Shown: positions 34,096-63,760 of the stretch, piece by piece | Position numbering within the stretch: the first letter of the stretch is position 1 | How the letters are laid out: each line of letters starts with the position of its first letter | DNA from: a virus | IMG/VR virus record: IMGVR_UViG_3300035459_000118 | Location: 34,972 to 98,971 of that record | Length of the DNA: 64,000 nucleotides | Strand: one strand, 5' to 3' | Made by a program: the position numbers and the translations under genes | The notes under the pieces: model-generated | What the model saw: the letters and a program-made list of their open reading frames with translations, nothing else | Database searches by the model: none | What the model was told of the DNA's origin: nothing

Positions 34096-34236
34096 ATGAC
34101 CCTTTCCTTCTGGCAAATCGTTGCGATCAGTTACATCGCGGGTTTGATTTCTTCCCCATTCATTATATGGGGAGTCTGCAAATTAACCTTCTGGGGTTTC
34201 AACAGAATATTCGATGGATTGGCAGAAGGAGACTAA
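34096..34236 (+). CDS. Small membrane protein (46 aa, not in the ORF track)
   Basis: GGAGG RBS; MTLSFWQIVAISYIAGLISSPFIIWG.. Confidence 0.55.
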   Translation: MTLSFWQIVAISYIAGLISSPFIIWGVCKLTFWGFNRIFDGLAEGD

Positions 34237-34237
34237 G

Positions 34238-34942
34238 ATGGCCAAAGGCGGAGGATTTGAAAGAGAAGTTTGTTATATCTTGTCAAAATGGATTACCAAT
34301 GGCAAGATGGATGACGCTCTAGGTCGCAGCGACGGTTCTGGAAGCAGGTTTACAGCCAGAAAGAAATCCGGAAAAGACACCGCTAACATGGCAGGAGATA
34401 TTACTTTTACGCACAAGGCAGGAATGTCGCTCATAAAAGTATGGAGCCTTGAGTGTAAATCGGGCTACGGAAGAAAGAAAAAAATCAAAGACAAAGAAGG
34501 AAAATTAGTCAAGAAGATTCAGGACCGTTGGGATATCCTTGACTGCCTTGACTCCAGACAAGAAGAGCCAACATTTCTTGCGATGTGGAGTCAATGCAAA
34601 AGGGATGCAGGACTTTCTCATAGGGAGTCGGTGCTTATTTTTCGGAGAAACCTACATGGGATTTGCATAGCTATGCAACATGAATATTTTCTTCGGCTGA
34701 CAGGTTTCTTCGGGGATTACCCTTCAACAGCCCTTGTTTTACATCTGCCTCAGCAAGAAAGAAAAAATCCATATTTTTTAACTGCTAAAGATTTAAAAGA
34801 ACTTCCTAATAGACGTTTTCGCACTCCGTTACCAACCCCCCAGATAGAAAAGGAGAAAATCATGATCATGTTCTTGAAAGATTTCGTCAAATGGTTGCCG
34901 AATAACTTCGTCAATCTTGTCCATGGAAAAAATCAGCCGTGA
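34238..34942 (+). CDS. Holliday junction resolvase (Hjc-like PD-(D/E)xK)
   Basis: KGGGFERE, SGS, GDI, LECK. Confidence 0.8.
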   Translation: MAKGGGFEREVCYILSKWITNGKMDDALGRSDGSGSRFTARKKSGKDTANMAGDITFTHKAGMSLIKVWSLECKSGYGRKKKIKDKEGKLVKKIQDRWDILDCLDSRQEEPTFLAMWSQCKRDAGLSHRESVLIFRRNLHGICIAMQHEYFLRLTGFFGDYPSTALVLHLPQQERKNPYFLTAKDLKELPNRRFRTPLPTPQIEKEKIMIMFLKDFVKWLPNNFVNLVHGKNQP

Positions 34943-35418
34943 AGCGTTACTTCTGGTTGATAGTCGTCTTTCTGGTATTATCCCCTTCTAAACTTCCTGG
35001 AGGTTTGTTTTCTCTTTCCTTAACTGACGAGATTCGCACCAAGTTGTTGATGAATCATTTTCCTGAAAAATTAACCGATCCAATAGAAATAGCTGCTCTT
35101 AGATGGGGAATTGATCCCAACTTAATAATCGCAATCATACAAACAGAAAGCGAATTTAAAAAATATGCAAAGTCCAGCAAGAGATACCATGGCTACATGC
35201 AAATCCCAAAGCCGATATACGATGAATATCTCAATATTGATATTGGGACTGGTATCCTGAGGGAAAAGATCAATAGAGCAAATGGCAATATTCGTATTGC
35301 AAACTTTTACTATAAAGGATTCAAAGTCACTTCTAGTAGAGGAAAATGGGCTGTCAACCGAGTAATGAAAATATACGCAAATTTAAAAGAGGGAAAATAT
35401 GCAGAACATGGAATGTAG
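34939..35418 (+). CDS. Lytic transglycosylase (SLT) with N-terminal signal/anchor
   Basis: AIIQTESEF, GYMQI, NIDIG, Y. Confidence 0.8.
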   Translation: MKRYFWLIVVFLVLSPSKLPGGLFSLSLTDEIRTKLLMNHFPEKLTDPIEIAALRWGIDPNLIIAIIQTESEFKKYAKSSKRYHGYMQIPKPIYDEYLNIDIGTGILREKINRANGNIRIANFYYKGFKVTSSRGKWAVNRVMKIYANLKEGKYAEHGM

Positions 35419-36843: not shown

Positions 36844-36850
36844 ATTAAGA

Positions 36851-36883
36851 GTGCGGGGAGTAAAGGAGAAAACCTCCCCGCAC
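36851..36883 (-). terminator. Intrinsic terminator at the convergence of the two arms
   Basis: gtgcggggag/ctccccgcac 10-bp stem with a T-rich tail on the - strand; second hairpin at 36893-36908. Confidence 0.65.
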
Positions 36884-36912
36884 CCGTAACCCAGCCTCCC
36901 CCGAGGCTAAGA

Positions 36913-37470
36913 TTAACTTCTTCCAATAGTAATATACCTCCTGGGATGTTCTGGACTTGGAAAAGATTCCACGACAGGCCAATATTTTTTCATTTCATCA
37001 GACCAAAATCTTGCATCCCCTTTTATCAAGGTCATTTCCTTCCCAAGTCTCTTGTCTGACATATCGTAAACTTCAATTATCAAATTATGACAAGTTCTTC
37101 GCATCTCATGCATGATTACTTCGAGCTTCGCCGGATCAACAGTCATAAGTACATTGATACAGATGCCCCAATCCGCCACGGGGAAATCTGTTGGTAAGGT
37201 TTCAAGAGGAGAAACACAATAGGTCAATCTTTTTCCGATGAGAGCCTTAGCAACACCCTCCAGGGCGACACCAGAGAAGTCGACCATGTTGACTTTTGAA
37301 CAGAAGGTTAATAAGTCTGGCTCAGCTCTCCCTGTACCACTACCATAGTCATTTACCGTGCTTCCCTCTGGAATATGCTTCCTAAGGAAAGGAATGAGCC
37401 TTTGACACGTCGATCCTCGGCGATAGTCTCCCTTTTGCCACACTTCATCGAAGAACTTGCCTGTCGTCAT
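36913..37470 (-). CDS. Class I SAM methyltransferase
   Basis: DYGSGTG, VD, D...C.NVL. Confidence 0.8.
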   Translation of the reverse strand: MTTGKFFDEVWQKGDYRRGSTCQRLIPFLRKHIPEGSTVNDYGSGTGRAEPDLLTFCSKVNMVDFSGVALEGVAKALIGKRLTYCVSPLETLPTDFPVADWGICINVLMTVDPAKLEVIMHEMRRTCHNLIIEVYDMSDKRLGKEMTLIKGDARFWSDEMKKYWPVVESFPSPEHPRRYITIGRS

Positions 37471-37675
37471 TTTGGGATCCTTTCATAAAATTCTTGAATT
37501 TTAATTTTGACATTCTTAATCTCTTGTAGCTCGTGTTCCCAAATAATAAGGGTGTCATATCCGAATTCACGAAATATAGCTTTTCTATTTTCTGGATCGC
37601 ATCCTTGATGCCAGTAATCTTCACAATTTGCCCACAACCACATTCACAAAATTTTATTTTATTGAATTTACACAT
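37467..37675 (-). pseudogene. Internally deleted homing endonuclease (CECGCG N-terminus plus Vsr/DUF559-like C-terminus)
   Basis: After CECGCGQIV the shifted frame reads DYWHQG..FREFGYDTLIIWEHEL, and its TGA overlaps the next ATG. Confidence 0.75.
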
Positions 37676-38332
37676 TTATTTTCGTCCCCAGGGGTCTATA
37701 TCTCGACATGTATATACTGGAAATTTGCTGAGATCTGGATAAGGCATTTCAATGTCTTCATTCTCTTTTGGGTTGCCTTCTATGTCGTAAAACTGAAGCA
37801 TAAGTTGAAGTCCTCTAGCTGCAAGTTCAGGAGTAAGATAGCAATTAATCCCAATCATATCAAAGAAGTCCGTGTGATATGAACATTCCCTACGTCCAGA
37901 AAACCTTGCCCTCTTGAACCATAGATAGGCATCCCTATCATCAGTAAGGATTGCCCCCCCTTTTCCTAATTTCAAATGCTTATAAGGACCAGTGAACGCA
38001 AGGCACATAAAGGTCCCGGGAAGATACATCTTTGAGGTAAATCGAAGTGCGCTGTCCCAAGTCTTTGACCCTATTAAATTATATGCTCCTTTTAAGGTCT
38101 TTCCTTTGACAGAAAAAAAATTGACATATCCACCAGCATGAATTATCGCACACGGAACCGAAGGATATGTCCTCGCTGGGATTGTAATTTCCTTACCTTC
38201 AATATTCTCATATTTCAAGGTCAGGAACAAAGCATTACTGCAATTGTCAACCGCGACAACATAGGGAGCTCCAGTATAACGGCAAAGCTCTTGCTCGAAT
38301 TGTTCGGTAATCCTATAGACACCTTCAGCCAT
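37676..38332 (-). CDS. DegT/DnrJ/EryC1/StrS sugar aminotransferase (short form)
   Basis: FEQEL..Y.GA.Y.VAV..CSNAL, DSA, F..YKHL..GKGGAILTDD. Confidence 0.85.
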   Translation of the reverse strand: MAEGVYRITEQFEQELCRYTGAPYVVAVDNCSNALFLTLKYENIEGKEITIPARTYPSVPCAIIHAGGYVNFFSVKGKTLKGAYNLIGSKTWDSALRFTSKMYLPGTFMCLAFTGPYKHLKLGKGGAILTDDRDAYLWFKRARFSGRRECSYHTDFFDMIGINCYLTPELAARGLQLMLQFYDIEGNPKENEDIEMPYPDLSKFPVYTCRDIDPWGRK

Positions 38333-38335
38333 GAC

Positions 38336-40654
38336 TTACCTCCAATCTGGTGGCAAAATGCGATTTCCAATTCTTACTGGTTTTGGAGCGGTTACTCTTA
38401 ATATTTTTTGCCTAACATTAGATTGTTTTCCTGGAGGGTGAGGATGTGCTATTGCTGGTTTTGAGACAACAACAGGATTCCCTCCCGCCATTTTTTGCAA
38501 TGGAGCAACTTCGGCTTGAATTAATTTTGCGCTTTCAAGACTTTGGCCAACATGATCCATATAAAGACAGGCATTTCCCTCTCCTACCCAAGAAATAAGA
38601 CGCCCAAGGCCAACATCAGGTTGGTAACCATGCAATTTCCTGTCGTGACCATTCCCTATTCCCTTTCGCCCCTGCATACCCTTCATCGAACAATGGATTC
38701 TCAGGCGATCATCAGTATCGTCTATCAGGAACTTATTTCCTTTGAAAGTGGCCCATAACCTGATGTCGATATACGGATTTCCCTCCAGGCATTCCTTGAA
38801 GAACGGTAATATCTTCGATGTGAATCCCGTCTGACAGAAACTTGCATGTTCCCTGTTGTATATTCTGCTGTACTTCATCAGGGGAAGGTAATAATAACGG
38901 GCGCACATTTCTCCAACAAGGTCATAAGACCTGAGGAGCCGTTCCATTGTTATTATGTAATCATGGCCGTACCAATCATCGTCCTCGAAGATCAATACGA
39001 TGTCCCCTTTTATAAGAGGAAAAGCCTTCTTCATGTTAAGTGTTAAGGTATGACCTTCCAAGGGCTTTGGGTCGCGGCGAACATATTCGCACCCTTCACG
39101 CAAGCGTTCCTGCAATGGGGTTCTTCCGTCGTCAATAACAAGCCATTGGTCAGGCTTTCTCGACTGGCTTGCTATCCATCGACGGGTAAGTTCAAAGGCC
39201 TCTGGCCTATCACCAGTAGGGGTTATCACCGTAATTGTTTTTGATGAACCACCAAGATCCCAAGCCCCTTCAATTTGTGGCTGTCCGTTCATTTGTCTTA
39301 AATTTCGCGTCCCTGCCAAATCATGGGAGACGTAATCCTTGATCCATGCCCCCGTTGTAGAGGCTCCCAATCCGGGAAGTTGTTTGAGTATTTTGCCTGA
39401 GAGTCCTTTATTATGAATGTCCAGCATGGTCAAAAAACAAGGAGCTCCATGATGAACATAAGGATGAAATTTCTTGTAGGCCGACACCTGAACAAGCTGA
39501 AAAAACGGATGCAAATACTTCATTGATTTTTTATCTTTGTGCCTTGTTTCAGGATCATACTCATATCCATCAAGGCCAGTCTCATGGATATACCCAACCC
39601 CGAACGTATCGCTTTCCATCATGGAGATCATCTTCTTGATCGGAGATTTCAACATCTGGATATCTGAATCAAAAAATAGCACATACGGGGTCCTCGCATT
39701 GTATATGCCAAGGCACATCCCCCTCCCATGCCCAATGTTGTACTCGGCATGAATGACTTCCAAGGACTTGTCTTCCTTTTCAAGAGACTCGACATAAAGT
39801 TGACATTCGTCCCCTTCAGAAGAGCCGTCTATGATTATGAGCTTCATCTTGGGATGAAAACTCCTGATCGATTCGTAGGCTCTTTTTATCAGTCCTTTTG
39901 TGTTATAGGTGACGACTACCCCTGTAACAAGATCATTCTCCGCGTTGTGCTCTTCCCCTCTCACGTATCCCTCCGTTTCATGGAAACAAGTAAGAGAATT
40001 GACGCAATAACTTTTCAGCCCTTTTTCCTTAAAATAGATGGAGCATCTCTTCCATAGGTCAGCATCACAAGGAGAAGAGGTTCCAGTTTCAGCATAAACA
40101 TCCCGGTACCTCAAGGGAATTTTCCGGAAATTGATACACGTCGAGGAATGGATCAACCCGCATGGCTTTGGGTAAAACTCCACTAAAGGTTGTTCTGTAG
40201 ATAGATGGGGAAGATATGAATTGATATGGGTGGACTTTGTGCAAACCCAAACCGTGCCCGTCTTTTCAATCGCAGCATTGAGCAAGCTCAAATGGTCGGG
40301 AGTCCAATAATCATCGTGATCTAAATGACAAAGATAGTCAAACCCATCCTTAAGAATCAATTCGATGCAATAATTCGCAAGGGCAAGCCCCACAACATTC
40401 CAAAGGATTTCCTTATCATGCCCGTACTTGTCCCTTTCCGCCGCTACAGACAGGTTTTCAATATACATCTTTTCCTGGGGGTATTCAGCGGCAATGTCAA
40501 GCAATTCTTTCTCATCGTCGTACTTGTCCCCGATCAGATATACCCGGAAATCCTGATGAGTCTGAGCGAAAATAGAGTCCAGTGCCCTCCTCAAGAAAAA
40601 AGGAGTCCTGCCATCTGGCCTCTGATAAGTTCCGATGATTATGGCAAATTTCAT
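38336..40654 (-). CDS. Triple GT-A (GT2-like) glycosyltransferase
   Basis: Three domains: IIIGTY..LDHDD; VVVTYN..DG..FDSD; VITPT..DDG..EDDD. Confidence 0.85.
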   Translation of the reverse strand: MKFAIIIGTYQRPDGRTPFFLRRALDSIFAQTHQDFRVYLIGDKYDDEKELLDIAAEYPQEKMYIENLSVAAERDKYGHDKEILWNVVGLALANYCIELILKDGFDYLCHLDHDDYWTPDHLSLLNAAIEKTGTVWVCTKSTHINSYLPHLSTEQPLVEFYPKPCGLIHSSTCINFRKIPLRYRDVYAETGTSSPCDADLWKRCSIYFKEKGLKSYCVNSLTCFHETEGYVRGEEHNAENDLVTGVVVTYNTKGLIKRAYESIRSFHPKMKLIIIDGSSEGDECQLYVESLEKEDKSLEVIHAEYNIGHGRGMCLGIYNARTPYVLFFDSDIQMLKSPIKKMISMMESDTFGVGYIHETGLDGYEYDPETRHKDKKSMKYLHPFFQLVQVSAYKKFHPYVHHGAPCFLTMLDIHNKGLSGKILKQLPGLGASTTGAWIKDYVSHDLAGTRNLRQMNGQPQIEGAWDLGGSSKTITVITPTGDRPEAFELTRRWIASQSRKPDQWLVIDDGRTPLQERLREGCEYVRRDPKPLEGHTLTLNMKKAFPLIKGDIVLIFEDDDWYGHDYIITMERLLRSYDLVGEMCARYYYLPLMKYSRIYNREHASFCQTGFTSKILPFFKECLEGNPYIDIRLWATFKGNKFLIDDTDDRLRIHCSMKGMQGRKGIGNGHDRKLHGYQPDVGLGRLISWVGEGNACLYMDHVGQSLESAKLIQAEVAPLQKMAGGNPVVVSKPAIAHPHPPGKQSNVRQKILRVTAPKPVRIGNRILPPDWR

Positions 40655-41247
40655 AGTTTAGTTCCACAAAGCATTGTACTTACAATCGAAATATCCTTGA
40701 ACCTATCATTAGACATAAGGAACTTGGAATTACACACTCCCCCTTTGGTAGACTTTGACAACTGCCCTATAGTCCAGTTTATATCATGGATGTATAGTCT
40801 TCCTCCAGGAACAATCCTTGGGAAAATCATTTTAAATCCGGTATAAACACATTCAAGCTCATGGCAACCGTCTATGAAAGCAACTGAGACCTCTGGGATC
40901 TGATCGATGCAATCCGTAAGGTCGCAGTTGTATTGAATAGCCCCATATTTATTGCCGGCCAAAATGTTCTTATAGAATTCCTTTTTCAAGGCGGACATCA
41001 GTCCTTTTGGGTAATCGTTCGCAACCTCTTCTATCTCTTCCGGATAGGGATCAACTGAGATCACCTTTTTCCCAACCTGTTCAGCGGCAGCAATCAAAAC
41101 AATGGTCGTCCCTCCTGAAGCTGAACCGATTTCCACAACTGCACCTGGAGGGGTTTCTAAAATCCCCCGATATAATTCTTCCCTCTCCCCAAGGGCAGTC
41201 TGGGTTTGAAATCCCTGAGATAATAGTAATGCCTGGTCCAGATCCAT
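40651..41247 (-). CDS. SAM methyltransferase (Methyltransf_24-like)
   Basis: VEIGSASG, SVDP, FIDGCH, GG...HD. Confidence 0.85.
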   Translation of the reverse strand: MDLDQALLLSQGFQTQTALGEREELYRGILETPPGAVVEIGSASGGTTIVLIAAAEQVGKKVISVDPYPEEIEEVANDYPKGLMSALKKEFYKNILAGNKYGAIQYNCDLTDCIDQIPEVSVAFIDGCHELECVYTGFKMIFPRIVPGGRLYIHDINWTIGQLSKSTKGGVCNSKFLMSNDRFKDISIVSTMLCGTKL

Positions 41248-41249
41248 TT

Positions 41250-41951
41250 TTAACCCCTTTCACACAGTAAGAATATGCTTGAACACAAGTCTGGATATTC
41301 CTTCCCAAATTGGTAACAACCCTCCAAGTATTCTGCAGAAACAATTCCCTCGGCTATGGCTCTGTCCCACTGGAAATTAGCAAGAACTTTGAAGAAAATT
41401 CCTGAGCAATGAGAAACTCTCATTCCAGACAACATGACATCCATTCCCAATGAATCAAAAGAATACGTTCTTTTGTGTCCATGGTTTTCCTCTTGCGGAG
41501 TGACGGCTGTGTTGCTTTTGATCAGTCCCATCTTGACCGCGATTTGCCGTGAGGCAGCGTTGGCATTGGGGCACACAAGAAAGAGCCTCCCCTCCTCGGT
41601 CAACCATTCATTCTTGATCATTTTCAGTATTGCGATCGGGTCTTCAACATGCTCCAGGACATGGGTCATTATGATATTTTCATACTTCGTCGAAAGTTTA
41701 AGATCCTCAAATGAAGAACAGATAAAGGTAATTCCATCCCCAAATTCCTCCCACTTCGCCGATTCGATAGATTTCCGATCAGAATCAACACAAGTGATGT
41801 CCTCAAAATACGGGAGAAGTCTCTGAGTAAAATCGCCTTTCCCAGAACCCAATTCCAACATATTGCCTTTTTTAAAAAAAGGAAGGAACGACGTCAGCAT
41901 ATATGGATGCATTACTTCCGTATCAAAAAGATAAGAATACTTGCTATCCAT
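41250..41951 (-). CDS. Class I SAM methyltransferase
   Basis: LELGSGKG, HVLEH, CPNA, GHKRTY. Confidence 0.88.
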   Translation of the reverse strand: MDSKYSYLFDTEVMHPYMLTSFLPFFKKGNMLELGSGKGDFTQRLLPYFEDITCVDSDRKSIESAKWEEFGDGITFICSSFEDLKLSTKYENIIMTHVLEHVEDPIAILKMIKNEWLTEEGRLFLVCPNANAASRQIAVKMGLIKSNTAVTPQEENHGHKRTYSFDSLGMDVMLSGMRVSHCSGIFFKVLANFQWDRAIAEGIVSAEYLEGCYQFGKEYPDLCSSIFLLCERG

Positions 41952-42510
41952 CTTTCCTGCCCCAATAGTTGGTCGCCTTAACGACCCGATCATAATCCTC
42001 TTTAACAACCCCGGTAACTATCCTATTCCAATATCTCCCTTTGCGGAAGAAATAATTTCTTATCAAACCTTCATCTTCCCAACCAAGTTTTTTATAAAAC
42101 ACACCAGAAATTTCATTGTATTCTATTCTTCCTCCATTCAACCTCTCAAGATTGAGCTCGTCAAAGGCATAGCGCATTGTAGTCATGACAGCATCAGTAC
42201 CGTATCCTTTGCTTCTCACGGCGTTGCTGCCCAGCATCAAACCATGATATGCGTGCCTATTTCGCCAGTCGATTTCTATTACGCTTGAGATCCCGATTAA
42301 GCCAATTTCTGGAGCATCCACTGCAAACCGCTTATTCAACTGGTCGTTCTTCTGTCTCTGAAACCAATCCCGGTGAAAATCCATAGAACTTGGAAAGTGA
42401 ATATCCCCAAGAAGATCTTGCAGATCTGGGTCATTCGCCCATTGATGAAGTAGGGGTAAGTCTTCTTCTTCAATTGCCCTCAGGGTAACAATGTTCCCTT
42501 TGATATTCAT
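41944..42510 (-). CDS. GNAT N-acetyltransferase (RimJ/PseH-like)
   Basis: LRAIE.EDL, RSKGYG, YAF.ELNL, YKKLGW..EG. Confidence 0.88.
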   Translation of the reverse strand: MNIKGNIVTLRAIEEEDLPLLHQWANDPDLQDLLGDIHFPSSMDFHRDWFQRQKNDQLNKRFAVDAPEIGLIGISSVIEIDWRNRHAYHGLMLGSNAVRSKGYGTDAVMTTMRYAFDELNLERLNGGRIEYNEISGVFYKKLGWEDEGLIRNYFFRKGRYWNRIVTGVVKEDYDRVVKATNYWGRKDG

Positions 42511-43463
42511 AATGCCCCTTCCAGAACGGCAAGTCCAAAACCATTCCTGCCAAATTCGTTTCCATTATAGAGCATATACGTGCTTCCTTCCAGAAAGAAC
42601 ACATGGGGATACCTGACCATCTCTGAATCCCAACCCTCATCGGAGACCGTAATCCCCGCTTTGGAATCGTCACGCTCCCAATGGAAAGCGTCGTGACTCG
42701 AAGCGTACCCTATCCTCAATCCATTCTTTCTTCCCCGATGGTTTCCACTTGGGCGATAACAAAAGAACATATGGAACTTGCCGTTTGCGTAGATGACATC
42801 GGGACCGGACTGGGCCTCGTCTTTTTCAAGAACACTTGGGATCAGGTCTTTATTCTCCCTTTTCCATTCAATCCCATCGAGAGACGTGGCCATCCGAATC
42901 TTGTAGACAGGTTCTGGCCTCCCATCCATCATTTTCCACTTCCGGCCAGCAATATAATATAGATAAAAACGATCATTAAATTTCCTGATCTTTGGCCCAC
43001 TCAAAACAAAAGGTTCATGAGGGGAATTTGCAAGTACAGGTCCCCGGCCAAACTTGACGAACGTCTTGCCATCAAGGCTCGTTGCCATTCCAATATTTGT
43101 GTATAGGGGTACTGAAACCCCTCTTGTAATCCCCGCATAGTACGCCCGGATAAGTCTTCCGTCATGGATAACAGACATAATATAAGTTCCGAACTCGTCG
43201 AACTCACCCAATCCACCCAAATCGAATATAGGCTTCTCAGCCACCCGCAAAACTTTCAACGGGTTCTTCCGGTCAAGATCAACATAGGCACAATAACTAA
43301 CATACTTTCCATCAAGATCCGCCTCAGGACGGCAAGAAAAATAAACACGGATATATTCACCATAGATTAATGTTGCCGGTCCTTGGGCGAATTCACGAAG
43401 CCAAGGACGACCTTCAACTTCTTGTGGGGTGAACACCTTGCCGAGCTTCTTCCATTTGAACAT
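42507..43463 (-). CDS. Five-bladed beta-propeller glycosidase-like protein (GH32/43/130-like)
   Basis: WKKLG, GEFDEFG, A.S.DG..W repeats, GWDSEM..YP, YNGN.FG..GFG. Confidence 0.75.
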   Translation of the reverse strand: MFKWKKLGKVFTPQEVEGRPWLREFAQGPATLIYGEYIRVYFSCRPEADLDGKYVSYCAYVDLDRKNPLKVLRVAEKPIFDLGGLGEFDEFGTYIMSVIHDGRLIRAYYAGITRGVSVPLYTNIGMATSLDGKTFVKFGRGPVLANSPHEPFVLSGPKIRKFNDRFYLYYIAGRKWKMMDGRPEPVYKIRMATSLDGIEWKRENKDLIPSVLEKDEAQSGPDVIYANGKFHMFFCYRPSGNHRGRKNGLRIGYASSHDAFHWERDDSKAGITVSDEGWDSEMVRYPHVFFLEGSTYMLYNGNEFGRNGFGLAVLEGAL

Positions 43464-43474
43464 GACATTTCCTT

Positions 43475-44173
43475 TCAAGCGAGAATATATTGCTTTAGAT
43501 ACTCTTTTATCTTTTCTTTTGGATTGAACATCATGATATCTATAATCGATAACCATGGGACAAAATCATTGCCGAACTGCGCATATTCTATATATGCAGA
43601 CTCAATAAATTTAAGCCTCAGTCCTTCTTCGCGGAATTTCTGAAATGAATAAAGTTTCGTCCCTCCAATAGTGTTGATATAGGTCTCACCCTTTAGAACT
43701 TTGCACAAGGCAAGCACTTTATCTTGGCTTTTAAGGCCATTGTGATCGATAGGAATCTCAGACGAAATTATTATCCTCGTTTCTATCTCAAGAAATTGAA
43801 GGATCTTCGCAATCGAATAAAGGAGATAAAAGAACAAATTTTTTTCGTCGTTGCTTATAATGCCCTCCACTAAAGGAAAGACCTGCTGAAAATATGGAGC
43901 TTTTACATAGGCTCCTTTGATCTTATTTGATAATTTCTCTCGGGGGAATTCATCCGCAAGGCTTCTTTGTCGAACATCAAGAAAATCAGAATCTTTTTTC
44001 AAGGGTAAAGAAAAAAGAGTAGGTGCCCCGTTCTGCAACATCCTGTTGCGGTTTATCCAGCCCTTCTTTGTATATTGAATATTATCATAAACGACGAAAA
44101 CATCGACGGAAGAAATAAGTTGCCAGTATCCAATGTAAGGGAAAAAATACGGCTGCATTATACCGATTTTCAT
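43475..44173 (-). CDS. wbqC: WbqC-family protein
   Basis: IMQPYFFPYIGY, YDNIQY.K.GWINRNR, YIN..GG, LSIID. Confidence 0.93.
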   Translation of the reverse strand: MKIGIMQPYFFPYIGYWQLISSVDVFVVYDNIQYTKKGWINRNRMLQNGAPTLFSLPLKKDSDFLDVRQRSLADEFPREKLSNKIKGAYVKAPYFQQVFPLVEGIISNDEKNLFFYLLYSIAKILQFLEIETRIIISSEIPIDHNGLKSQDKVLALCKVLKGETYINTIGGTKLYSFQKFREEGLRLKFIESAYIEYAQFGNDFVPWLSIIDIMMFNPKEKIKEYLKQYILA

Positions 44174-44955
44174 TTCAGGAAGCCCTTTCTGATAGCAATC
44201 CATTCTGGATTTCCTATCTCTACCATCCTATCATAAATTCTCTGTCTGATTTCCCTCGTCTTTATTTTCATTGCTCTTTGAGACAGACTACACCAGGAAT
44301 TTCCACCATGCATCCTCCGAAAAACAGAAGGCTCAATCCCGGGAATATATTTACAAGGGCCATACATACCCATCATAACCGTCAGCGCGTAATCACCCCA
44401 AAAGACCTCAAAATTTTTCTTGGTCTGTTCGTTATATAGATTTCTCCAGAGTTTTGTGGAGGGGTGAATATCGTAGCCACTGCTGTCATACTTGATAAGA
44501 TCAAGGGCAGAATAATCCCGGGGTTTTTTACTTGAAGGGATAACAATTATATTTCTATCAACATGGTGGATCTTGTAATCATGATAGCATAAAACATATT
44601 CTGGATTGGCCTCCATAAAATCAACTTGTTTCTGCAGCTTCAGAGGATCTGTCCAATAATCGTCTCCGTCGCAATCTGCTACATATTCCCCCTTTGCAAC
44701 TGAGTACATATTGAAAAGAGGGTATATCCCTGTCTTAGAAAATTGATTTTCCTTTTGGAATATAGCACGAATGACCCCAGGGTCTTTTTGTTGATAATCT
44801 CGAATGATTTCTTGCGTTCCGTCGGTTGAGGCGTCGTCATGAACAATGACCTCAAAGGGAAATGTCGTCAGTTGCGTGAGGAAGCCGTTCAGGGCGTCCT
44901 TAATGAGATTCCTATGGTTATATGTCTGGCAACAAATAGAGACGACAGGCTTCAC
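44170..44955 (-). CDS. GT2 glycosyltransferase
   Basis: VSICC.TYNH, HDDASTDGT, CDGDDYWTDP.KLQKQ. Confidence 0.92.
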   Translation of the reverse strand: MKPVVSICCQTYNHRNLIKDALNGFLTQLTTFPFEVIVHDDASTDGTQEIIRDYQQKDPGVIRAIFQKENQFSKTGIYPLFNMYSVAKGEYVADCDGDDYWTDPLKLQKQVDFMEANPEYVLCYHDYKIHHVDRNIIVIPSSKKPRDYSALDLIKYDSSGYDIHPSTKLWRNLYNEQTKKNFEVFWGDYALTVMMGMYGPCKYIPGIEPSVFRRMHGGNSWCSLSQRAMKIKTREIRQRIYDRMVEIGNPEWIAIRKGFLK

Positions 44956-45602
44956 GACCAAAGCTCCTTTACCCAGCCGCCGCATTCTGGAGGCTTCGGT
45001 TTCCCGTGGAACATTACTATCTTGCAGTCAAGGCAAACTTTGTTTTCAAGACGATGCAATTTATAACTCTGAACGATTTTATCCGGGAACAAGTCAAAGC
45101 TCTTGCCAAATCGATCATTCACCCAACCCTGTTGGCTCTTTTGGCAAGGGAATCCGGCTTGTTTGAATGCTTCCCAAATCTCGGCGCGAGAACCTATCTT
45201 GAGTAGAATGACAGAGCTGTTTGGGACTTTGGATTTTGGGTCCCCTTCTGGCCACCATCCTTCCGGCCAATCTCTAGCCATAACATGATCAGAAGGCCAT
45301 TCTATTGCTTCGTCAATGCTGCCGGTGATTACAATGTCTAAGTCTAAGAATAAAAGACGTTCGGTAGAAATTCCTGGGATAGAAGGCATATAAAGTCCCA
45401 TTTTCCCCCACCATCCAGGGGCATCAAATGGCAAGGGGAGAACACGGACTTTCTTTGAAATTCCAATTGGATTATCTGTGAAACAAACAAAATCAAAGAG
45501 CAACCTACGAACATTATGGCTGACCATTGATTCTAAAATGTTTACATATTCGGGACCATATTTGTCCCCCTTTTTGATGCAGCAAATAGTTATCTTATTC
45601 AT
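44952..45602 (-). CDS. GT-A glycosyltransferase
   Basis: GDKYGPEYV, CFTD, GWWGK, FLDLD, NSS, FHGKPKP. Confidence 0.85.
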   Translation of the reverse strand: MNKITICCIKKGDKYGPEYVNILESMVSHNVRRLLFDFVCFTDNPIGISKKVRVLPLPFDAPGWWGKMGLYMPSIPGISTERLLFLDLDIVITGSIDEAIEWPSDHVMARDWPEGWWPEGDPKSKVPNSSVILLKIGSRAEIWEAFKQAGFPCQKSQQGWVNDRFGKSFDLFPDKIVQSYKLHRLENKVCLDCKIVMFHGKPKPPECGGWVKELWS

Positions 45603-46161
45603 TGAGCCATTCTTTCGTTGGATATCCGAGGAAATCTTTTGTCCATCCAGACATTGACCGGACCTTGTCTCCGAACATCTTTTTTGCAAACAAGAGCCAG
45701 CCTTCCTGAAAACAATTATACTGGGCTTTCTTTGGAGTCGTTAGATTCGTCCCTTGCATCGGACAACCGCAAAGAATTATCTTCTTATATCCCATCCCGA
45801 CAGAAGCTTGGCAACCAAGAAAGGCCGAGCTTCCAGATTTTGGGGAGGGAGCTACTAAAGGCCAAAGCATATCAATGCCTTTCTTTTTCTTGATTTCTTC
45901 TATTTTCTGTTCTTGCTTTTTATTGAAATGACCGTGGACAAGATAATCTAGATTCCCTCCAATCCTCTGCCTCCGCATACGGAAGGCAACAAAATCTTCA
46001 GGATGATATGATGCGACATGTTGAATATCAAAAATTACTCGATCTGAACAATCGAGGCCAATCGCCATGAAATCAAAATTCACACGGCAAATCTTGGCAA
46101 ATTCAGCAAGATCCTCTTCGAGACAAGGCGCAATACCCAAGGCAACAATAACCGAATTCAA
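45595..46161 (-). CDS. Rossmann-like glycan-associated protein (DUF115/GT29-like)
   Basis: G.APCL, SGSSA..G...GYKKIILCG. Confidence 0.5.
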   Translation of the reverse strand: MNSVIVALGIAPCLEEDLAEFAKICRVNFDFMAIGLDCSDRVIFDIQHVASYHPEDFVAFRMRRQRIGGNLDYLVHGHFNKKQEQKIEEIKKKKGIDMLWPLVAPSPKSGSSAFLGCQASVGMGYKKIILCGCPMQGTNLTTPKKAQYNCFQEGWLLFAKKMFGDKVRSMSGWTKDFLGYPTKEWLNE

Positions 46162-48939: not shown

Positions 48940-50145
48940 TTAAACCCCATTCACCGTAATATTGATTATGTTTCCCTGGGTAACTTCATAATATGCCAGA
49001 ACAATATCTTCGTCTGAAAGAGGTGAGGTCCCAACCTTCCCTGCCGTCAATGAGGTTATGGAAAACAAAGGCTTTGTCAAATCGGCCATGACCGCAAGGG
49101 CAACGCCATACAGTGCAGATATCGTCAAACTCTCACCGATCTGGAGACTGTTCAAGTATTCAAGGATCGCAGCCTTGACTGCTGCTGTTGTGGCAGATGT
49201 ATACCCTCCGAATCCGGTTATCTCCAAAGCCACGGCAATCGAGATATAAGACGGCCGATAAAAATTAATAGTAGAAACAATCTTGGAAATCGGGTCTATC
49301 ACAACTTGGTGGACCGCTCCATCCTCTTCGGGAGATCCGGCCAAGGGGTTGGTAAGGGGACCAATCCCCTTGTTTTCCCAAATCGCAGTGGCCACGTCAA
49401 GGTCCGTTCCGCCTTCTACCACACACGACAACGAATGAGGAGGGAGTCCGTCTTCATCGACATCATTGGTCGGATTCTCCAGAACGCTCACCCTTGCGAC
49501 ATTATCCAGGGCCAATAATGCAGCCCAAGTTCCCGTCAGCAACGTCATGGAAGGCTTCTCTGTGCTAATCACTTGACGCGCCCGTAACTCCGCATCCGTT
49601 TCGATAGGCAGCCCAGCGGTCGCAGCAGCAGCATTTGTTACGCTGGTCCACCCGGAGACAGGGGTCGAAATGGAAGTCAAAGTCCCAATGGCAGCTGTAA
49701 TCGCCCCTATGGTTTGACAGGTAGCCACCGCCGAGGCTGTACCAGCAACAAGAGTTACTGTTGCCGGCAAATTCCATGCATTGCCGTTCGTATCGGTGAC
49801 AATTCCATTCGTTATGATTGTTCCGGTCGTACCAGTCAATGTAACCGTGCAGGTAGAATACGTCGCCTCCTTCCTGGATATTCCATTGCAAGCAACGATC
49901 TGATCAAGACCAGAGCCAACCCCAGTCAATGGCCCCCTGTTGTTGTAAACAAGCTGAATCGCTTGCAGGGTATCATAAAGCATCAGAGCAAAAACGGAAA
50001 GCTCCTGATAATCCGAAGAGTCGATTTCCAGATAGATATCAGAACCATAAATCGCTTTCTTCTGTTCTATTAGATTATCGAGGATATCTTGATAAGAAGG
50101 GATAACCAATCCCTCGGGGCCAACATATGGAGCAAGATATGGCAT
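48940..50145 (-). CDS. Baseplate J-like protein
   Basis: G.GLD..NGI.R, ETDAELR.R, VVEGG. Confidence 0.9.
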   Translation of the reverse strand: MPYLAPYVGPEGLVIPSYQDILDNLIEQKKAIYGSDIYLEIDSSDYQELSVFALMLYDTLQAIQLVYNNRGPLTGVGSGLDQIVACNGISRKEATYSTCTVTLTGTTGTIITNGIVTDTNGNAWNLPATVTLVAGTASAVATCQTIGAITAAIGTLTSISTPVSGWTSVTNAAAATAGLPIETDAELRARQVISTEKPSMTLLTGTWAALLALDNVARVSVLENPTNDVDEDGLPPHSLSCVVEGGTDLDVATAIWENKGIGPLTNPLAGSPEEDGAVHQVVIDPISKIVSTINFYRPSYISIAVALEITGFGGYTSATTAAVKAAILEYLNSLQIGESLTISALYGVALAVMADLTKPLFSITSLTAGKVGTSPLSDEDIVLAYYEVTQGNIINITVNGV

Positions 50146-50522
50146 TACGAAAGTCCTCCCCCGGTATTCGTCACTGCGATTGTCCCGAAAATTGTGTCGA
50201 CATGCATTGTACAAGAATAAGCTCTTGTCGAAGAATCAAAAGACGAAGAATACGATTTGATCTTCAATATAATTCCCGGCAAAGTGGTCTGTACCCTTTT
50301 TTGGATCAACCGGTCTATCAATGCCTTATCTGTCTTGCCAAGGATCTTTTCGATCATTGGGAGGCCCTCGTTCAGGTCCTCCCACCACTCTGCCAGCCAT
50401 AATTTCAAGCGGGTCTGGATGATCTGAATGACGGCATCAAGGTCAAAGACATAATCGTTCTGACCATCCCCATAAACAGGATCCCAGTTTTCGTCAAGTT
50501 TTCTCACTCGTATCGTGCTCAT
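50145..50522 (-). CDS. Baseplate wedge/sheath initiator protein
   Basis: R.LD..D..G, TRL.LW..EWW.D..G.P, DTIFG. Confidence 0.8.
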   Translation of the reverse strand: MSTIRVRKLDENWDPVYGDGQNDYVFDLDAVIQIIQTRLKLWLAEWWEDLNEGLPMIEKILGKTDKALIDRLIQKRVQTTLPGIILKIKSYSSSFDSSTRAYSCTMHVDTIFGTIAVTNTGGGLS

Positions 50523-50527
50523 AATCT

Positions 50528-51178
50528 TTATCCTGGGAGAATTACTCCTGTTGTCATTTCATCGCCGGAAGTTACGCCACCATGAATGTGGGTAAGGAAT
50601 TCTACCCCTTGAATTTTTACCGAAGTTGCATCCAAAGATATCTCTCCATTCTTTACGGAGATGGAACTGCCGCCAAAAACAAGCGAAGCCTCGGAATCAG
50701 AAAGTTCTACGTAATTCGTTCCCTCTGCATTCCTCAATTGCGCGGAGTCAGCAGAGTAATTCGCAATGACGTTTGGCTTCGATTTAATCCCCACTATGGC
50801 AAAGGCATCTGAGAGATCATGCCGACGCAATTCCATTTGATTCTGGACATCCCCATTCTGCCACCAAGCATCAAAACAAGTATCAGAAAAGATTATCAGG
50901 CACTCGTCCCCGGCAACAATAGGGAGAGAAAGAGAATATCCCCCAGCTGAAGGGATACAAATAGGAACGTCCAGAAGAATAGGGATCTTCTCAATCCTTT
51001 CTTCTCCATTCACTTTGATCCGTTCTGTAATGGCTACTTCCACTTCAACAGTTTGGGCTTCCTTGTCAAAAGCCCGGATTATCCCCGGAGAAGCACACCG
51101 AAGGCTCCAATCAAAATTATCGAAGGCTTTTTTTATCCCTTCGTCTTTTATATCTTGTCTTTCCGGAATCGTTATCAC
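50528..51178 (-). CDS. Baseplate central spike (Gp138-like)
   Basis: PG.I..FD, GDECL, RRHDLSDA, C-terminal HIH metal motif. Confidence 0.9.
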   Translation of the reverse strand: MITIPERQDIKDEGIKKAFDNFDWSLRCASPGIIRAFDKEAQTVEVEVAITERIKVNGEERIEKIPILLDVPICIPSAGGYSLSLPIVAGDECLIIFSDTCFDAWWQNGDVQNQMELRRHDLSDAFAIVGIKSKPNVIANYSADSAQLRNAEGTNYVELSDSEASLVFGGSSISVKNGEISLDATSVKIQGVEFLTHIHGGVTSGDEMTTGVILPG

Positions 51179-51187
51179 TTCAATGCC

Positions 51188-52168
51188 TCAATTCGGATTA
51201 ATAGCAGGGTCAGAAAGCATTTCTGGGACCGTCAATTGCAATCCGGCCTTTCCTGTCAACGAATATCCGACAACATCGGTATACCAATCATTACCTCTAG
51301 TATCCCCGGTATGCCTGATACCTCCGACCTTAAAATATCCATCCTTCGGCAACACTGGAACCAAATTTTGACCTGGTGTTGCTTTTTGCTGCTTAACATT
51401 TATCGAACTCAAATCAAGCTTTACCCATTTTGGAGGATTGGTTAAGATCAGTTCTGGGTTTAACAGGGTGCGGAAACTTATCCCAAAATCTATTTGTTGT
51501 GGGGTCCCAATCAATCCAGAATTCGTATCGACAATAATCGCCTCTCCTTGAGGGGAATCGGTTGCCTTTAAGATATTCAAGGAATCATTCACCATGAACA
51601 TTTGTGCTGCATTATTCCGTACTATCTCTCTTAAAGCCGTTACAGGAGAACCAAAAACAACACGTCCTCTGGGCTTTTTAGCAGTGCTTATTTTTGAGGA
51701 AACCGTTCCAATGGGAATTACCGTTGTTGATCTTGCAGCTATTTCATTTATCAAGGTCTGATCCGAGTAATCCTTCAAATGAAAACTTGCAAAATTATCC
51801 TTGAACAATCTGGCTCCATCCATACACATCAATGTCAATTTATAATCTGTCACATTTTCTCGGGTAAATAAGGTCTGAAAAACCTTCCCACCGAATATCT
51901 GGCCATACTTGCCACCGTATTTTTCCTGATACCCAGCGTAAAAATAAACCTCTGCGCCTTCTTGGATAATCTTCTTTTCTGTTTCCCTTGTAGGGTTGTA
52001 GATAATAAACTCTGAAAAATACCAGCCTTCGTATCCAGGATAATTAATTTCAAAAGTGCATTTCAAGGACTCAAGGCCAGAGAAACCATCATTCCCAATA
52101 GAAAGGACAGTTCCATCGGAACATAGAATCTTCAAGAGCCATTTTCTGCCGTAATGAGACCTATTCAT
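51188..52168 (-). CDS. Baseplate hub protein
   Basis: IYN, AGY, GLIGTP, HTGDTRGNDWY. Confidence 0.85.
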   Translation of the reverse strand: MNRSHYGRKWLLKILCSDGTVLSIGNDGFSGLESLKCTFEINYPGYEGWYFSEFIIYNPTRETEKKIIQEGAEVYFYAGYQEKYGGKYGQIFGGKVFQTLFTRENVTDYKLTLMCMDGARLFKDNFASFHLKDYSDQTLINEIAARSTTVIPIGTVSSKISTAKKPRGRVVFGSPVTALREIVRNNAAQMFMVNDSLNILKATDSPQGEAIIVDTNSGLIGTPQQIDFGISFRTLLNPELILTNPPKWVKLDLSSINVKQQKATPGQNLVPVLPKDGYFKVGGIRHTGDTRGNDWYTDVVGYSLTGKAGLQLTVPEMLSDPAINPN

Positions 52169-52496
52169 TGTCTCCCCATGCCAATATAAAATTTATCCCA
52201 AGATCCTTATCATTGGGATTGCTGGAAACATTGCCAACGTTCACCAAATACGCGCTTCCAATTTTCAGGTACCCATATTGATGCAAAATATTGGCCGCTG
52301 GATAATCACCCGTCAATAAAGGGACAGAATCCAATAAAACAACTGATGTCTTTGGGTCTGTTATTTTCATTGTCCAATACTCGGCGATTTCATTGTATCT
52401 TATAAAAAATTGCAAAGTAATATTGGCCCCATCAACAGCCAAAACCGCCTGGAAGCTTTGATTCGGTGAACTGCTTAAAGGGACAACCTGAAACAT
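52161..52496 (-). CDS. Small baseplate protein
   Basis: PL...PNQ, RYN...W, synteny. Confidence 0.75.
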   Translation of the reverse strand: MFQVVPLSSSPNQSFQAVLAVDGANITLQFFIRYNEIAEYWTMKITDPKTSVVLLDSVPLLTGDYPAANILHQYGYLKIGSAYLVNVGNVSSNPNDKDLGINFILAWGDNE

Positions 52497-52506
52497 CTAA
52501 TTCTCC

Positions 52507-53181
52507 TTAAGGAGCCGGTAAAAAAGGAATCTGGACGCCTTTGATTGCAGAGCCGTCCAGTGGGGCAATCGAAATTGTCCCAATATTGGTATTATCAGTA
52601 GTGGATGGTCTCAAACTTGTTTTCTGCACTTCTATGGACGCAACAAAAATCTGCTGGAAAGAAACCATGCATTTCAAACCATATAATGTCCTAAGGTCGT
52701 CAGGCGAAGTAACACTGGCGACGACCATGTTTTCATACGTATCAAGCCTTGTCGTTATGACAAGAGGAATCCCTTTGTTTTTCCAATCAACCAGCTTTTG
52801 ATACGCAACAACGGACTTGGTGGGATCTGAACTATCATTCCCCCACTGACCAGGAGAAAAGCTGTCCATAACATCAGACATCTGAATCTCCATGGACAAC
52901 TGAGCCGGTAGGGAAAATGAATGATCTGAAATGTTTGCCTTATCCTGAACCGGGTGCTGCGTTATTCTCTGGGACTGGGAATGGTCATTCCGAACAACTG
53001 CGTCAAAATACCAGATTGTACCATCGTCATCCTCAATGAATGTTTTCGGAACTTCTTTTCCCCAACCTACCGGTCTGTATGCTCCAGGTTCCACCTGAGG
53101 ATTCGGGGTGACTGTCACCAAATATGCCCGCCATGGAGAGTATTGAATATCGGCAGTATCAATAAAGACTTTATTTATCAT
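52507..53181 (-). CDS. Distal tail/tube initiator protein
   Basis: FDAV...H...IT.HPV...ISDH, TRL.TY.NM. Confidence 0.8.
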   Translation of the reverse strand: MINKVFIDTADIQYSPWRAYLVTVTPNPQVEPGAYRPVGWGKEVPKTFIEDDDGTIWYFDAVVRNDHSQSQRITQHPVQDKANISDHSFSLPAQLSMEIQMSDVMDSFSPGQWGNDSSDPTKSVVAYQKLVDWKNKGIPLVITTRLDTYENMVVASVTSPDDLRTLYGLKCMVSFQQIFVASIEVQKTSLRPSTTDNTNIGTISIAPLDGSAIKGVQIPFLPAP

Positions 53182-54785: not shown

Positions 54786-54799
54786 AAGCCGTTCTCCTT

Positions 54800-55030
54800 T
54801 TAAGACTTGCCTATGTCAGCAGCCCTTCTCTCGTTCTCATACTTTATGGCGGTGTATTCATGCCAATCCAAAAGATCATCATAAGTATAAGTTCCGTCCC
54901 AGAGCTCGTGTTGCTGCCAATCTCCATTCCTCACTGGCGCAAAAGCGTAATCATCTATATTGACGCATTGGAGGGGATCAAACCTTTGAAGCTGTTCCCT
55001 AAGTCCTTCAATGCGTCTTCGACGAAAAAA
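54800..55030 (-). CDS. Tail assembly chaperone, -1 frameshift extension (not in the ORF track)
   Basis: In-frame T_TTT_TTC at 55030-55024; -1 frame open to TAA at 54800, encoding APV..ELWDGTY..DLLD.HE..ENERR. Confidence 0.8.
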   Translation of the reverse strand, partial: FFRRRRIEGLREQLQRFDPLQCVNIDDYAFAPVRNGDWQQHELWDGTYTYDDLLDWHEYTAIKYENERRAADIGKS

Positions 55031-55455: not shown

Positions 55456-55492
55456 CCTGAAACCTTTCTGATCAATCAAGATCGGCTAGAGA

Positions 55493-55921: not shown

Positions 55922-55954
55922 CGTATATCCTCCTTTACGATTTTTCTTTTAATA

Positions 55955-57115: not shown

Positions 57116-57143
57116 ATTCTTTTCCTCCCCATTTAAGTTCTGG

Positions 57144-58577: not shown

Positions 58578-58585
58578 AGTTTCAC

Positions 58586-59449: not shown

Positions 59450-59452
59450 TTA

Positions 59453-61877: not shown

Positions 61878-61900
61878 GTGAAATCTCCTTTCTGGCTACC

Positions 61901-62674: not shown

Positions 62675-62708
62675 TGCAAAAACCTTTCTAACCATTCGGA
62701 ACTATTGA

Positions 62709-63689: not shown

Positions 63690-63760
63690 ATCTTTTTCCT
63701 CCTTAAAGGGATCTTTGATTTTTATCCATTTCCAGGCCAAGCCCGAAATTCCATTGCCGC

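Follow-up and report, generated by a model that had tools for sequence, protein, structure and literature searches.

Glycosylation of phage virions and virus-encoded tailoring of sugars are both already known, and we describe here how the closest of these systems compare with a cluster of eleven sugar-related genes at the end of the virion operon of an uncultured phage, known here from sequence alone. The cluster is contained in a stretch of 64,000 nucleotides (the window) spanning positions 34,972 to 98,971 of IMG/VR record IMGVR_UViG_3300035459_000118, and its genes are designated g01 to g10 and g12 in the order of transcription. Freeman et al. in 2023 reportedly described virion glycosylation in mycobacteriophages (Che8 gp110, Corndog gp38 and Myrna). 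Mycobacteriophage virions are glycosylated by phage-encoded transferases (PMC12363180; PMC12619734), and these transferases are soluble and accessory, as they would be in the present cluster, with the glycans placed in the cytoplasm on capsid and tail-tube subunits. The mycobacteriophage system has few transferases, no sugar-tailoring enzymes, and hosts among the Actinobacteria, whereas the present cluster has six predicted transferase modules, a putative amino-sugar tailoring set, a lead protein with a predicted sialyltransferase/Maf fold, and a fixed place in structural operons.

Two further systems invite comparison. First, the flagellin O-glycosylation island of Campylobacter (Maf, PseC/PseH, and PtmG, which is Cj1324) is similar in that it glycosylates protein in the cytoplasm without a lipid carrier or flippase, and includes a transferase of the Maf/MptE fold, an aminotransferase together with a GNAT protein, and an N-acyl-remodelling enzyme, PtmG, a putative WbqC-family protein. 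On legionaminic acid, PtmG turns an acetamido group into an acetamidino one (PMC3766260). The island differs from the phage cluster, in which no NeuB/PseI synthase or CMP-transferase is seen, and from the bacterial loci that carry relatives of the phage genes, which mostly contain Rml (dTDP-sugar) genes and not nonulosonic-acid genes; the g01 protein is also smaller than Maf, at about one third of its size, and gives no match to the MptE-like profile of Pfam. Secondly, the giant viruses (the Mimivirus viosamine pathway and the chloroviruses) decorate their particles using their own amino-deoxysugar tailoring (a DegT-type aminotransferase, an acetyltransferase and methylation) together with transferases, although these are eukaryotic viruses that encode their own dehydratase.

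We lean towards reading the phage cluster as a late pathway, confined to the cytoplasm, that makes a glycan for attachment to virion proteins. Three things are new relative to the systems above: the enzyme set, whose lead protein belongs to a sialyltransferase-fold family without a match in the deposited phages; its fixed place in the structural operons of two tail types; and its plug-in amino-sugar cassette.

Organization of the cluster

The cluster extends from 46161 to 36913, all on the minus strand, and contains eleven tightly coupled genes and one small doubtful open reading frame (ORF; Table 1). As the initial annotation described, it follows directly after the tail fibre gene on the same strand with mostly overlapping junctions; using the starts best supported by homologues, these are overlaps of 4–8 nt or gaps of no more than 15 nt, with ribosome-binding-site-like GGAG or AAGGG motifs. 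The gap between the tail fibre stop and g01 is 15 nt, with a ribosome-binding-site-like GAAAGGG and no terminator-like site. The complete record is 98,971 bp with a 123-bp terminal overlap (IMG/VR class: direct terminal repeats), and the window is its last 64 kb. Head genes occupy 1–23 kb of the genome on the minus strand, the replication genes are on the plus strand, and the tail genes are on the minus strand from window position 64000 down to 36913; on the circle the head and tail blocks form a single late arm of about 50 kb, with the glycan cluster at its distal end. Coupling to the fibre gene and this last place in the virion arm agree with the late expression initially proposed, as judged from gene position. 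The tail block encodes a sheath protein (DUF3383), a tape-measure-like SLT protein, a baseplate hub, Baseplate_J and DUF2612 proteins and a Gp53-like tail fibre, the last of which is a candidate glycan acceptor.

The absence of membrane proteins from the cluster, also part of the initial annotation, is borne out by a transmembrane check in which the hydropathy scan gave no transmembrane-like segment save one buried strand, and every cluster protein is predicted to be soluble, in keeping with a cytoplasmic pathway. The same scan revealed no ORF with four or more transmembrane-like segments anywhere in the 99-kb genome, and membrane components of the Gtr or O-antigen type (GtrA flippase, GtrB with transmembrane helices, GtrC/GT-C, Oac) were not found there; the PHROG matches to GtrB-like proteins cover the soluble GT2 core only. 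Neither an SDR dehydratase/epimerase nor a sugar nucleotidyltransferase is encoded in the genome, and the host must therefore supply the keto-sugar nucleotide.

Comparisons were made with three sets of loci: 80 IMG/VR loci containing g01, 80 bacterial loci (L035-L114), and 29 viral contigs with a cassette of short DegT and WbqC genes. Batch Pfam scans of the neighbourhood ORFs refer to the 25 commonest families.

The lead gene g01

The g01 product, initially described as Rossmann-like, can be assigned more closely to a sialyltransferase/Maf/MptE-like fold. It has no match in Pfam (E≤0.01), NCBIfam or PHROG, and does not belong to the GT42 or MptE-like (PF01973) profiles. An AlphaFold2 (AF2) model built from 41 homologues has a predicted local distance difference test score (pLDDT) of 95.4, and its top Foldseek matches are the Campylobacter sialyltransferases CstII and CstI (prob 1.0, TMq 0.61-0.66). 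Exhaustive structural alignment (VIA) gives CstI a Z of 12.8, with a root-mean-square deviation of 3.8 over 171 residues, followed by SteA (11.2), the flagellin glycosyltransferase Maf (5mu5; Z 10.8 over 170 residues) and an MptE-like HPPK (9.4). Residues H53, G110, S111-S112, G132, P134 and W155 are invariant.

The family is large: a search of one database gave 106 clusters, and a second database contributed 2,127 representatives at E≤1e-3. Among the matches listed, the homologues are all metagenomic or viral. None was found by tblastn in 50,697 deposited phage records, and none occurs in the 80 bacterial cassette loci. By these searches, g01 appears to found a large virus-only family. Natural fusions join g01 and g02 in both orders, two copies of g01, or g01 and a Methyltransf_24 fragment. 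From its modelled fold, g01, the invariant first gene of the module, probably places the first sugar on a protein acceptor.

Recurrence of the module in virion operons

An overview of the 80 viral contigs shows that g01 is located within a virion operon in 76 of them, and that these operons are of two types, distinguished by using the structural proteins of locus L140 and the tail proteins of this phage as probes. In the siphovirus type (62/80) g01 lies immediately after a gene encoding a 164-aa protein (S_164), with Neck1 and S_164 on one side of it and the genes for the tape measure and the putative major tail protein on the other. In the myovirus type (14/80) it lies immediately after a homologous tail fibre/baseplate module; the other four loci are too short to type. 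Locus L140 illustrates the siphovirus order: terminase, portal, protease-capsid fusion, head decoration, Neck1, the 164-aa protein, g01-g02-g03-DegT and two methyltransferase genes, a 343-aa protein, and tape measure. The conserved 343-aa protein (phrog_30644; L140:14428-15459) is probably the major tail protein. No homologues of the siphovirus-module structural proteins are present in the genome of the phage described here, and the glycan module is the only shared element found between the two lineages. The embedding of a g01-led module in the virion operons of two unrelated tail types lends support to a virion target, and as in the mycobacteriophages the transferases are placed with virion genes, judged by position from the operon coupling and the 76 of 80 loci.

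The coupling is also close in the siphoviruses, where the g01 start overlaps or falls within 10 nt of the upstream structural stop in 29 of 40 loci. The module, always flanked by the same pair of structural genes, is 1.1 to 8.3 kb long, and in more distant relatives these two genes are adjacent and module-free, from which we conclude that the module is accessory and dispensable. Among uncultured siphoviruses of 30-55 kb with the protease-capsid fusion (L121-L194), 16 of 47 relatives are without the glycan module. The commonest partner following g01 is g12 (45 of the 80 loci, with 40-73% identity), followed by g02 (39), the short DegT gene (21), g03 (17) and g09-like genes (11). The lineage core is g01-g02-g03-DegT-g12, and in this phage a block of genes, g04-g09, is inserted between g03 and the DegT gene.

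Relatives in P1 and other cultured phages

The g02 protein connects the module to cultured phages. It matches P1 PmgQ (tblastn 9e-8, pairwise 7e-14) and phiNP_030 of Citrobacter phage phiNP (tblastn 8e-16, pairwise 2e-22), with P7 HdmD and a protein of Pelagibacter phage Mosig as further distant homologues; on these scores g02 is a distant homologue of PmgQ. The genes lie in late operons both in P1 (L244, NC_005856 79592-82150; PmgO/PmgP/PmgQ) and in phiNP (L245, 22510-23695; phiNP_031/030), and PmgO and phiNP_031, which are beside the g02 homologues, are annotated as alpha-2,3-sialyltransferases. Direct similarity between g01 and PmgO is not significant (hhalign E 0.003, prob 11%; HMMER <10 bits), and we do not propose direct homology; the links are transitive and through fusion, with one member of the g01 family matching PmgO at E 7e-5, and one natural protein consisting of a PmgP/phiNP_031-like half and a g01-like half. 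The P1 pmg operon thus resembles the module in having a small sialyltransferase-like protein next to a g02 homologue in the late operon of a cultured phage, but there are no sugar-tailoring genes there, and its "putative morphogenetic" label is an annotation derived from the late promoter.

Glycosyltransferases

The five GT-A domains in three genes that were initially annotated are all recognizable, g03 and two g09 domains by the Pfam GT2 profile, and g02 and the C-terminal domain of g09 by language-model neighbours, with DXD motifs in each (DCDGDD in g03; LDHDD, FDSD and EDDD in g09; LDLD in g02). Against a GT2 profile cut-off of 23.3 bits, g03 scores 69.5 and g09 110.6, with 35.2 for g09 residues 1-240 and 67.9 for residues 236-480. 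Neither g02 nor the C-terminal domain of g09 has a Pfam glycosyltransferase match, and their assignment comes from the language model and PHROG; in the C-terminal 303 aa of g09, GT2-like Atlas features are found in 26 of 30 neighbours, and the motifs are PTGDRPE, WLVIDDG and FEDDDW. This domain has no similarity to g02 by BLASTP, and the pieces of g09 exist as separate genes in other loci. The ESM Atlas language-model neighbours of g02 are viral glycosyltransferase clusters, and its nearest Pfam families are GT8/Nucleotid_trans; g02-like domains also reside within viral proteins that carry MptE-like and GT2 or Methyltransf_24 domains, with a structural TM of 0.87 between g02 and domains of the viral MptE-like fusion proteins. 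To these five domains g01 adds a sixth transferase-like module.

Sugar-tailoring genes

The WbqC, GNAT and three methyltransferase genes stand as first annotated, each with Pfam matches (g04; g06; g07, g08 and g12). The g04 protein covers positions 1-217 of the 218 in the WbqC profile, and its AF2 model (pLDDT 94) has a HUP/class I aminoacyl-tRNA synthetase-like fold. A search by sequence against the PDB gave no match, whereas at the structural level Foldseek finds BshC (E 8e-4), and VIA gives Z scores of 14.2 for BshC (231/242 residues aligned), 12.2 for class I LysRS and 7.2 for MshC, with PanC weaker. The predicted fold thus aligns both with BshC and with class I aminoacyl-tRNA synthetase cores. 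BshC and MshC are the cysteine:aminosugar ligases of bacillithiol and mycothiol synthesis; they acylate a sugar amine with an amino acid (cysteine), a reaction fitting a step after an aminotransferase. However, WbqC is half the size of BshC and has no sequence similarity to it, and a literature search on WbqC function yielded no paper. Because an aminotransferase precedes it in the pathway, a GNAT and methyltransferase come after, and BshC and MshC acylate a sugar amine, the most economical reading of the modelled fold is that WbqC is a candidate ATP-dependent ligase acylating the amine of a sugar.

The propeller encoded by g05, initially described as glycosidase-like, is GH130-like, and it is 318 aa in length and not 349 as first given. 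Its family matches are weak, with 28.5 bits for GH130 (cut-off 26, no single stretch passing), 28.5 for GH32N (22.1), and 59.5 against a cut-off of 450 for the NCBIfam beta-1,2-mannobiose phosphorylase; its PDB match is a 1,2-beta-oligomannan phosphorylase (6e-6). Homologues of 320 aa fall into more than 7,000 clusters, and tblastn gave no match in deposited phages. The GNAT protein g06 matches NCBIfam PseH (UDP-4-amino-4,6-dideoxy-AltNAc N-acetyltransferase) at 4.5e-15, with 56.1 bits that fall below the equivalog cut-off of 93.1. The best NCBIfam matches in the cluster are to this PseH-like GNAT and to a PseC/LegC-like aminotransferase, with scores far below the equivalog cut-offs.

The gene g10 was initially annotated as a DegT aminotransferase, and the residues central to this assignment are retained, namely the pyridoxal phosphate (PLP) lysine K118, which aligns with the Schiff-base lysine of PDB 9bgp, and the pyridine-binding D93; however, g10 is a short form of 218 aa that matches part of the Pfam profile and does not have the full two-domain architecture (~360-400 aa). 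Compared to canonical DegT enzymes it is without about 25 N-terminal residues, about 45 internal residues and the whole C-terminal domain, aligning over residues 34-87 and 174-243 and ending at approximately residue 243 of a 382-aa enzyme. There are 48 homologues, all viral and mostly 207-216 aa, and D93 and K118 are at least 95% conserved in the 49 sequences; this shared length and conservation mark g10 as a member of a genuine short family rather than a disrupted gene. A frameshift with the remainder of the gene downstream was considered and rejected, as only a methyltransferase gene and a tiny ORF follow, and the 48 homologues are equally short. The short DegT has no match in the 80 bacterial loci and was found here in viral loci only.

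A bacterial cassette and its capture by phages

The WbqC-propeller-methyltransferase block has relatives in a fixed cassette of 80 bacterial genomes (e.g. L065:8146-13134) that contains genes for a full-length DegT protein (368 aa), WbqC, a propeller, a second propeller, a GNAT protein and a methyltransferase. These six genes share 57-70% identity across Proteobacteria, Bacteroidota, Chlamydiota, Patescibacteria and Actinomycetota, and their neighbours include Rml genes (RmlA-D), Wzx-type flippases, GT1/GT2/GT4 genes and polytopic membrane proteins. The gene order is the same as in the phage block, with identities of 45-64% for WbqC, 57-70% for the propeller and 44-64% for the methyltransferase, the g07 homologue being the cassette methyltransferase, with 54-64% identity to g07, in 72 of the 80 bacterial loci and in most phage loci. 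The bacterial version departs from that of the phage in its full-length DegT, its two propellers, its different GNAT, and its setting among Rml, flippase and membrane protein genes. We conclude that the phage block came from bacterial O-antigen-type loci.

A viral form of the cassette, with the short DegT, WbqC, propeller and GNAT-methyltransferase genes amid GT1/GT2, full-length DegT and dehydratase genes, is found in 29 contigs and partly in Flavobacterium phage vB_FspM_immuto (NC_055915), whose short DegT shares 66% identity with g10. The immuto relatives in IMG/VR resemble the present cluster in these genes and in having many glycosyltransferases, with no membrane proteins noted. They differ in encoding their own dehydratases/epimerases and GT-B enzymes and in being without g01. 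In the propeller tree the immuto-type phage copies form one clade (support 1.0), separate from g05, which nests among bacterial copies, and we therefore conclude that phages captured the cassette at least twice.

Proposed function of the cluster

In the pathway that we propose, the host would supply activated sugars including an NDP (nucleoside diphosphate)-4-keto-6-deoxyhexose such as dTDP-4-keto-6-deoxyglucose, which g10 would aminate, as suggested by its family and conserved Lys and Asp. The fold of g04 suggests that it could use ATP to join a carboxylate, perhaps of an amino acid, to the new amine, and the family memberships of g06, and of g07, g08 and g12, that these would acetylate and methylate, respectively; the propeller g05 is left without an assigned step. 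The six transferase modules would then build the glycan, with g01 transferring the first sugar to a protein acceptor and g02, g03 and the triple-domain g09 extending it. The initial annotation included the cluster's own sugar tailoring, and this is supported by the DegT-like, WbqC, GNAT and methyltransferase proteins, but the set is not self-sufficient, having neither a dehydratase nor a nucleotidyltransferase.

Placement of the glycan on the virion, as first suggested, has gained comparative support from the recurrence in virion operons of two tail types, but no acceptor signal was found, and several observations weigh against it. The virion proteins (window 49330-63913) contain six G-S-P motifs against 2.7 expected, a number reached in 21 of 300 shuffles and not significant, and no Ser/Thr-rich or mucin-like tract, the richest window being 47%. 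O-antigen glycosyltransferases are also soluble or peripheral, and the missing membrane proteins are compatible with use of a host lipid-linked pathway. The accessory nature of the module is equally expected of a moron, one module-bearing record is classed as a provirus, and the neighbours of the immuto-type clusters are a PD-(D/E)XK nuclease gene and other small genes instead of structural ones.

Some of these points would suit remodelling of the host envelope, in which the phage enzymes feed a modified sugar and extra transfer steps into the host undecaprenyl-linked O-antigen or capsule pathway, to be finished by the host flippase, polymerase and ligase, with the surface change blocking superinfection or freeing progeny from debris. 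Published work interprets the sugar clusters of phages as diversifying capsule or O-antigen (PMC7824862; PMC12801897). The WbqC-propeller-GNAT-methyltransferase cassette has its native setting in the surface-polysaccharide loci of bacteria, with the g05 copy nesting among bacterial propellers; the provirus and the accessory nature of the module favour this too. We nonetheless consider it unlikely, for the genome has no membrane-type initiating transferase, flippase, polymerase, ligase, Gtr protein or acyltransferase by the transmembrane scan, and the module is translationally coupled within late structural operons and is not near integrase or immunity genes with its own promoter. Furthermore, the invariant g01 is viral or metagenomic only among the matches listed and absent from the 80 bacterial loci, and late expression would leave little time for rebuilding the surface.

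It is less probable still that the glycan is destined for some other target, whether a small molecule, a protein of the host or a soluble one of the phage, or that g01 is a nucleotide-binding assembly factor with unrelated passengers in an insertion hot spot. The g01 fold family does include HPPK, thiamine pyrophosphokinase and the division regulator SteA, and the slot between S_164 and the major tail gene is very variable and sometimes holds other small genes. Against this, fusions of g01 to a GT-A glycosyltransferase recur, the genes that accompany it nearly always encode sugar enzymes or methyltransferases, and the same partner set is present in two unrelated structural contexts.

Lastly, the transferases could put a tailored oligosaccharide on a hydroxylated base shortly before packaging, as protection against restriction; ThyA homologues and C5 cytosine methylases (C5-methylase plus TET) are the known routes to the hydroxylated bases that bear DNA sugars. 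Some phages do use GT-A and GT-B enzymes to add diverse glycans to their DNA as hypermodifications, with late group transfer (bioRxiv 10.1101/2023.12.21.572611; PMC13326640), and this phage does modify its own DNA, with ADDT, a phosphatase-kinase and an inositol-phosphate synthase encoded at 11572-15542. A DNA target is nevertheless the least probable of all, since that modification module belongs to the replication arm, on the opposite strand and at a distance of 21 kb, the genome has neither a ThyA-like hydroxymethylase (PF00303) nor a C5 methylase (PF00145), ThyA homologues are present in none and a C5 methylase in one of five CheckV-complete module-bearing siphovirus genomes, and the module has a fixed place among tail and neck genes.

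Other features of the genome

The phage has no close relatives among deposited phages, with sheath identity of ~40% at best, and megablast of the cluster against deposited phages gave no match. There are no tRNA genes in the genome, and a promoter scan gave a site count no higher than in shuffled sequence. Two hairpins lie directly 3′ of the stop codon of g12, the last cluster gene; the second, with its U-rich tail, is between the convergent early and late arms and could terminate both. Just before this convergence point, at the end of the plus arm (window 34214-35418, plus strand), are genes for a protein resembling PDDEXK_15 nucleases and for a small protein with an SLT domain that could be an endolysin.

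All eleven genes of the initial annotation are present, to which the doubtful small ORF region between g10 and g12 should be added. This region of about 230 nt has one frame encoding 76 aa with a CxCGCG motif, and a second (37467-37643) encoding 58 aa that ends ...FGYDTLIIWEHEL and overlaps the start of g12 by ATGA; we take the C-terminal motif of the latter to be Vsr-like. In a relative (L116) the DegT and methyltransferase genes abut directly without an insert, and the region could represent either a small gene with a frameshift or the decayed remains of a homing endonuclease.

In the replication arm, the thymidine-hypermodification module (window 11572-15542, plus strand) is confirmed to include inositol-1-phosphate synthase, ADDT and a phosphatase/P-loop kinase. 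No PF00303 member that could provide the 5-hydroxymethyluracil for this module was found in the genome.

Table 1. Genes and other elements of the glycan cluster and its borders, in order of transcription (window coordinates; SAM, S-adenosylmethionine)
Feature	Coordinates	Strand	Basis and remarks
Tail fibre, 299 aa	46177..47076	-	Pfam Gp53-like_C 9e-18; PHROG tail fibre families; last structural gene before the cluster
g01, 188 aa, predicted minimal sialyltransferase (GT42)/Maf/MptE-like fold	45595..46161	-	AF2, Foldseek and exhaustive alignment
g02, 216 aa from ATG 45602, GT-A (GT8/Nucleotid_trans-like)	44952..45602	-	phrog_1962 2e-23; DXD motif FLDLDIV
g03, GT2 glycosyltransferase, likely start GTG 44955	44170..44985	-	Pfam Glycos_transf_2 4e-19, 69.5 bits; DXD motif DCDGDD
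g04, WbqC family, likely start ATG 44173	43475..44203	-	Pfam WbqC (PF08889) 1e-66, 225 bits, cut-off 21.3
g05, 318-aa five-bladed propeller, GH130/GH32/GH43 (DUF377) kind	42507..43463	-	Pfam GH130 9e-7, GH32N 1e-6
g06, GNAT N-acetyltransferase, PseH-like	41944..42510	-	Pfam Acetyltransf_3 3e-17, 64 bits vs 25.4
g07, SAM methyltransferase, likely start ATG 41951	41250..42008	-	Pfam Methyltransf_23/11/12
g08, SAM methyltransferase (Methyltransf_24)	40651..41247	-	Pfam 9e-14; homologues in other modules (L013, L140)
g09, 772 aa, three fused GT-A (GT2-like) domains	38336..40654	-	Pfam GT2, Atlas features; DXD at residues ~112, 329, 557
g10, short DegT-like PLP enzyme, 218 aa	37676..38332	-	Pfam DegT 1.7e-16, profile positions 26-98 of 360 only
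Doubtful small ORF region, between DegT g10 and g12	37445..37675	-	Two overlapping frames; no Pfam family match
g12, small SAM methyltransferase, 185 aa	36913..37470	-	Pfam Methyltransf_25/11, weak
Second hairpin, 12-bp GC-rich stem then U-rich tail	36849..36885	-	-39.7 kcal/mol for 76 nt, z -5.67, 0/200 shuffles equally stable

Significance

More broadly, and with the balance tipped slightly towards doubt, we put forward the possibility of a widespread, modular and phage-specific protein-glycosylation system, in which a lead enzyme of minimal sialyltransferase/Maf fold (>2,000 sequence clusters) is wired into siphovirus and myovirus virion operons together with swappable tailoring cassettes from bacterial O-antigen loci. 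Such a system would build N-acylated, methylated amino-deoxysugar glycans on tails or heads, in hosts that are probably Gram-negative, and PmgO/PmgP/PmgQ of P1 would be its cultured counterpart. This offers a hypothesis for three late P1 genes that have been without a function since the genome was sequenced, and P1, phiNP and the immuto phages provide direct experimental access to function. Further leads are the large, apparently virus-only sialyltransferase-fold family, the truncated yet conserved DegT-like PLP enzyme, the six-gene bacterial cassette conserved across phyla, and a possible function for the WbqC family, suggested by its modelled fold, in the BshC-like ligation of amino sugars. 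Should the particle indeed carry the glycan, glycosylated virions would be common among phages in the environment, as a modular trait and not an oddity of actinobacteriophages, with a bearing on host recognition, particle stability, sticking to polysaccharide matrices, and the immune recognition of therapeutic phages.

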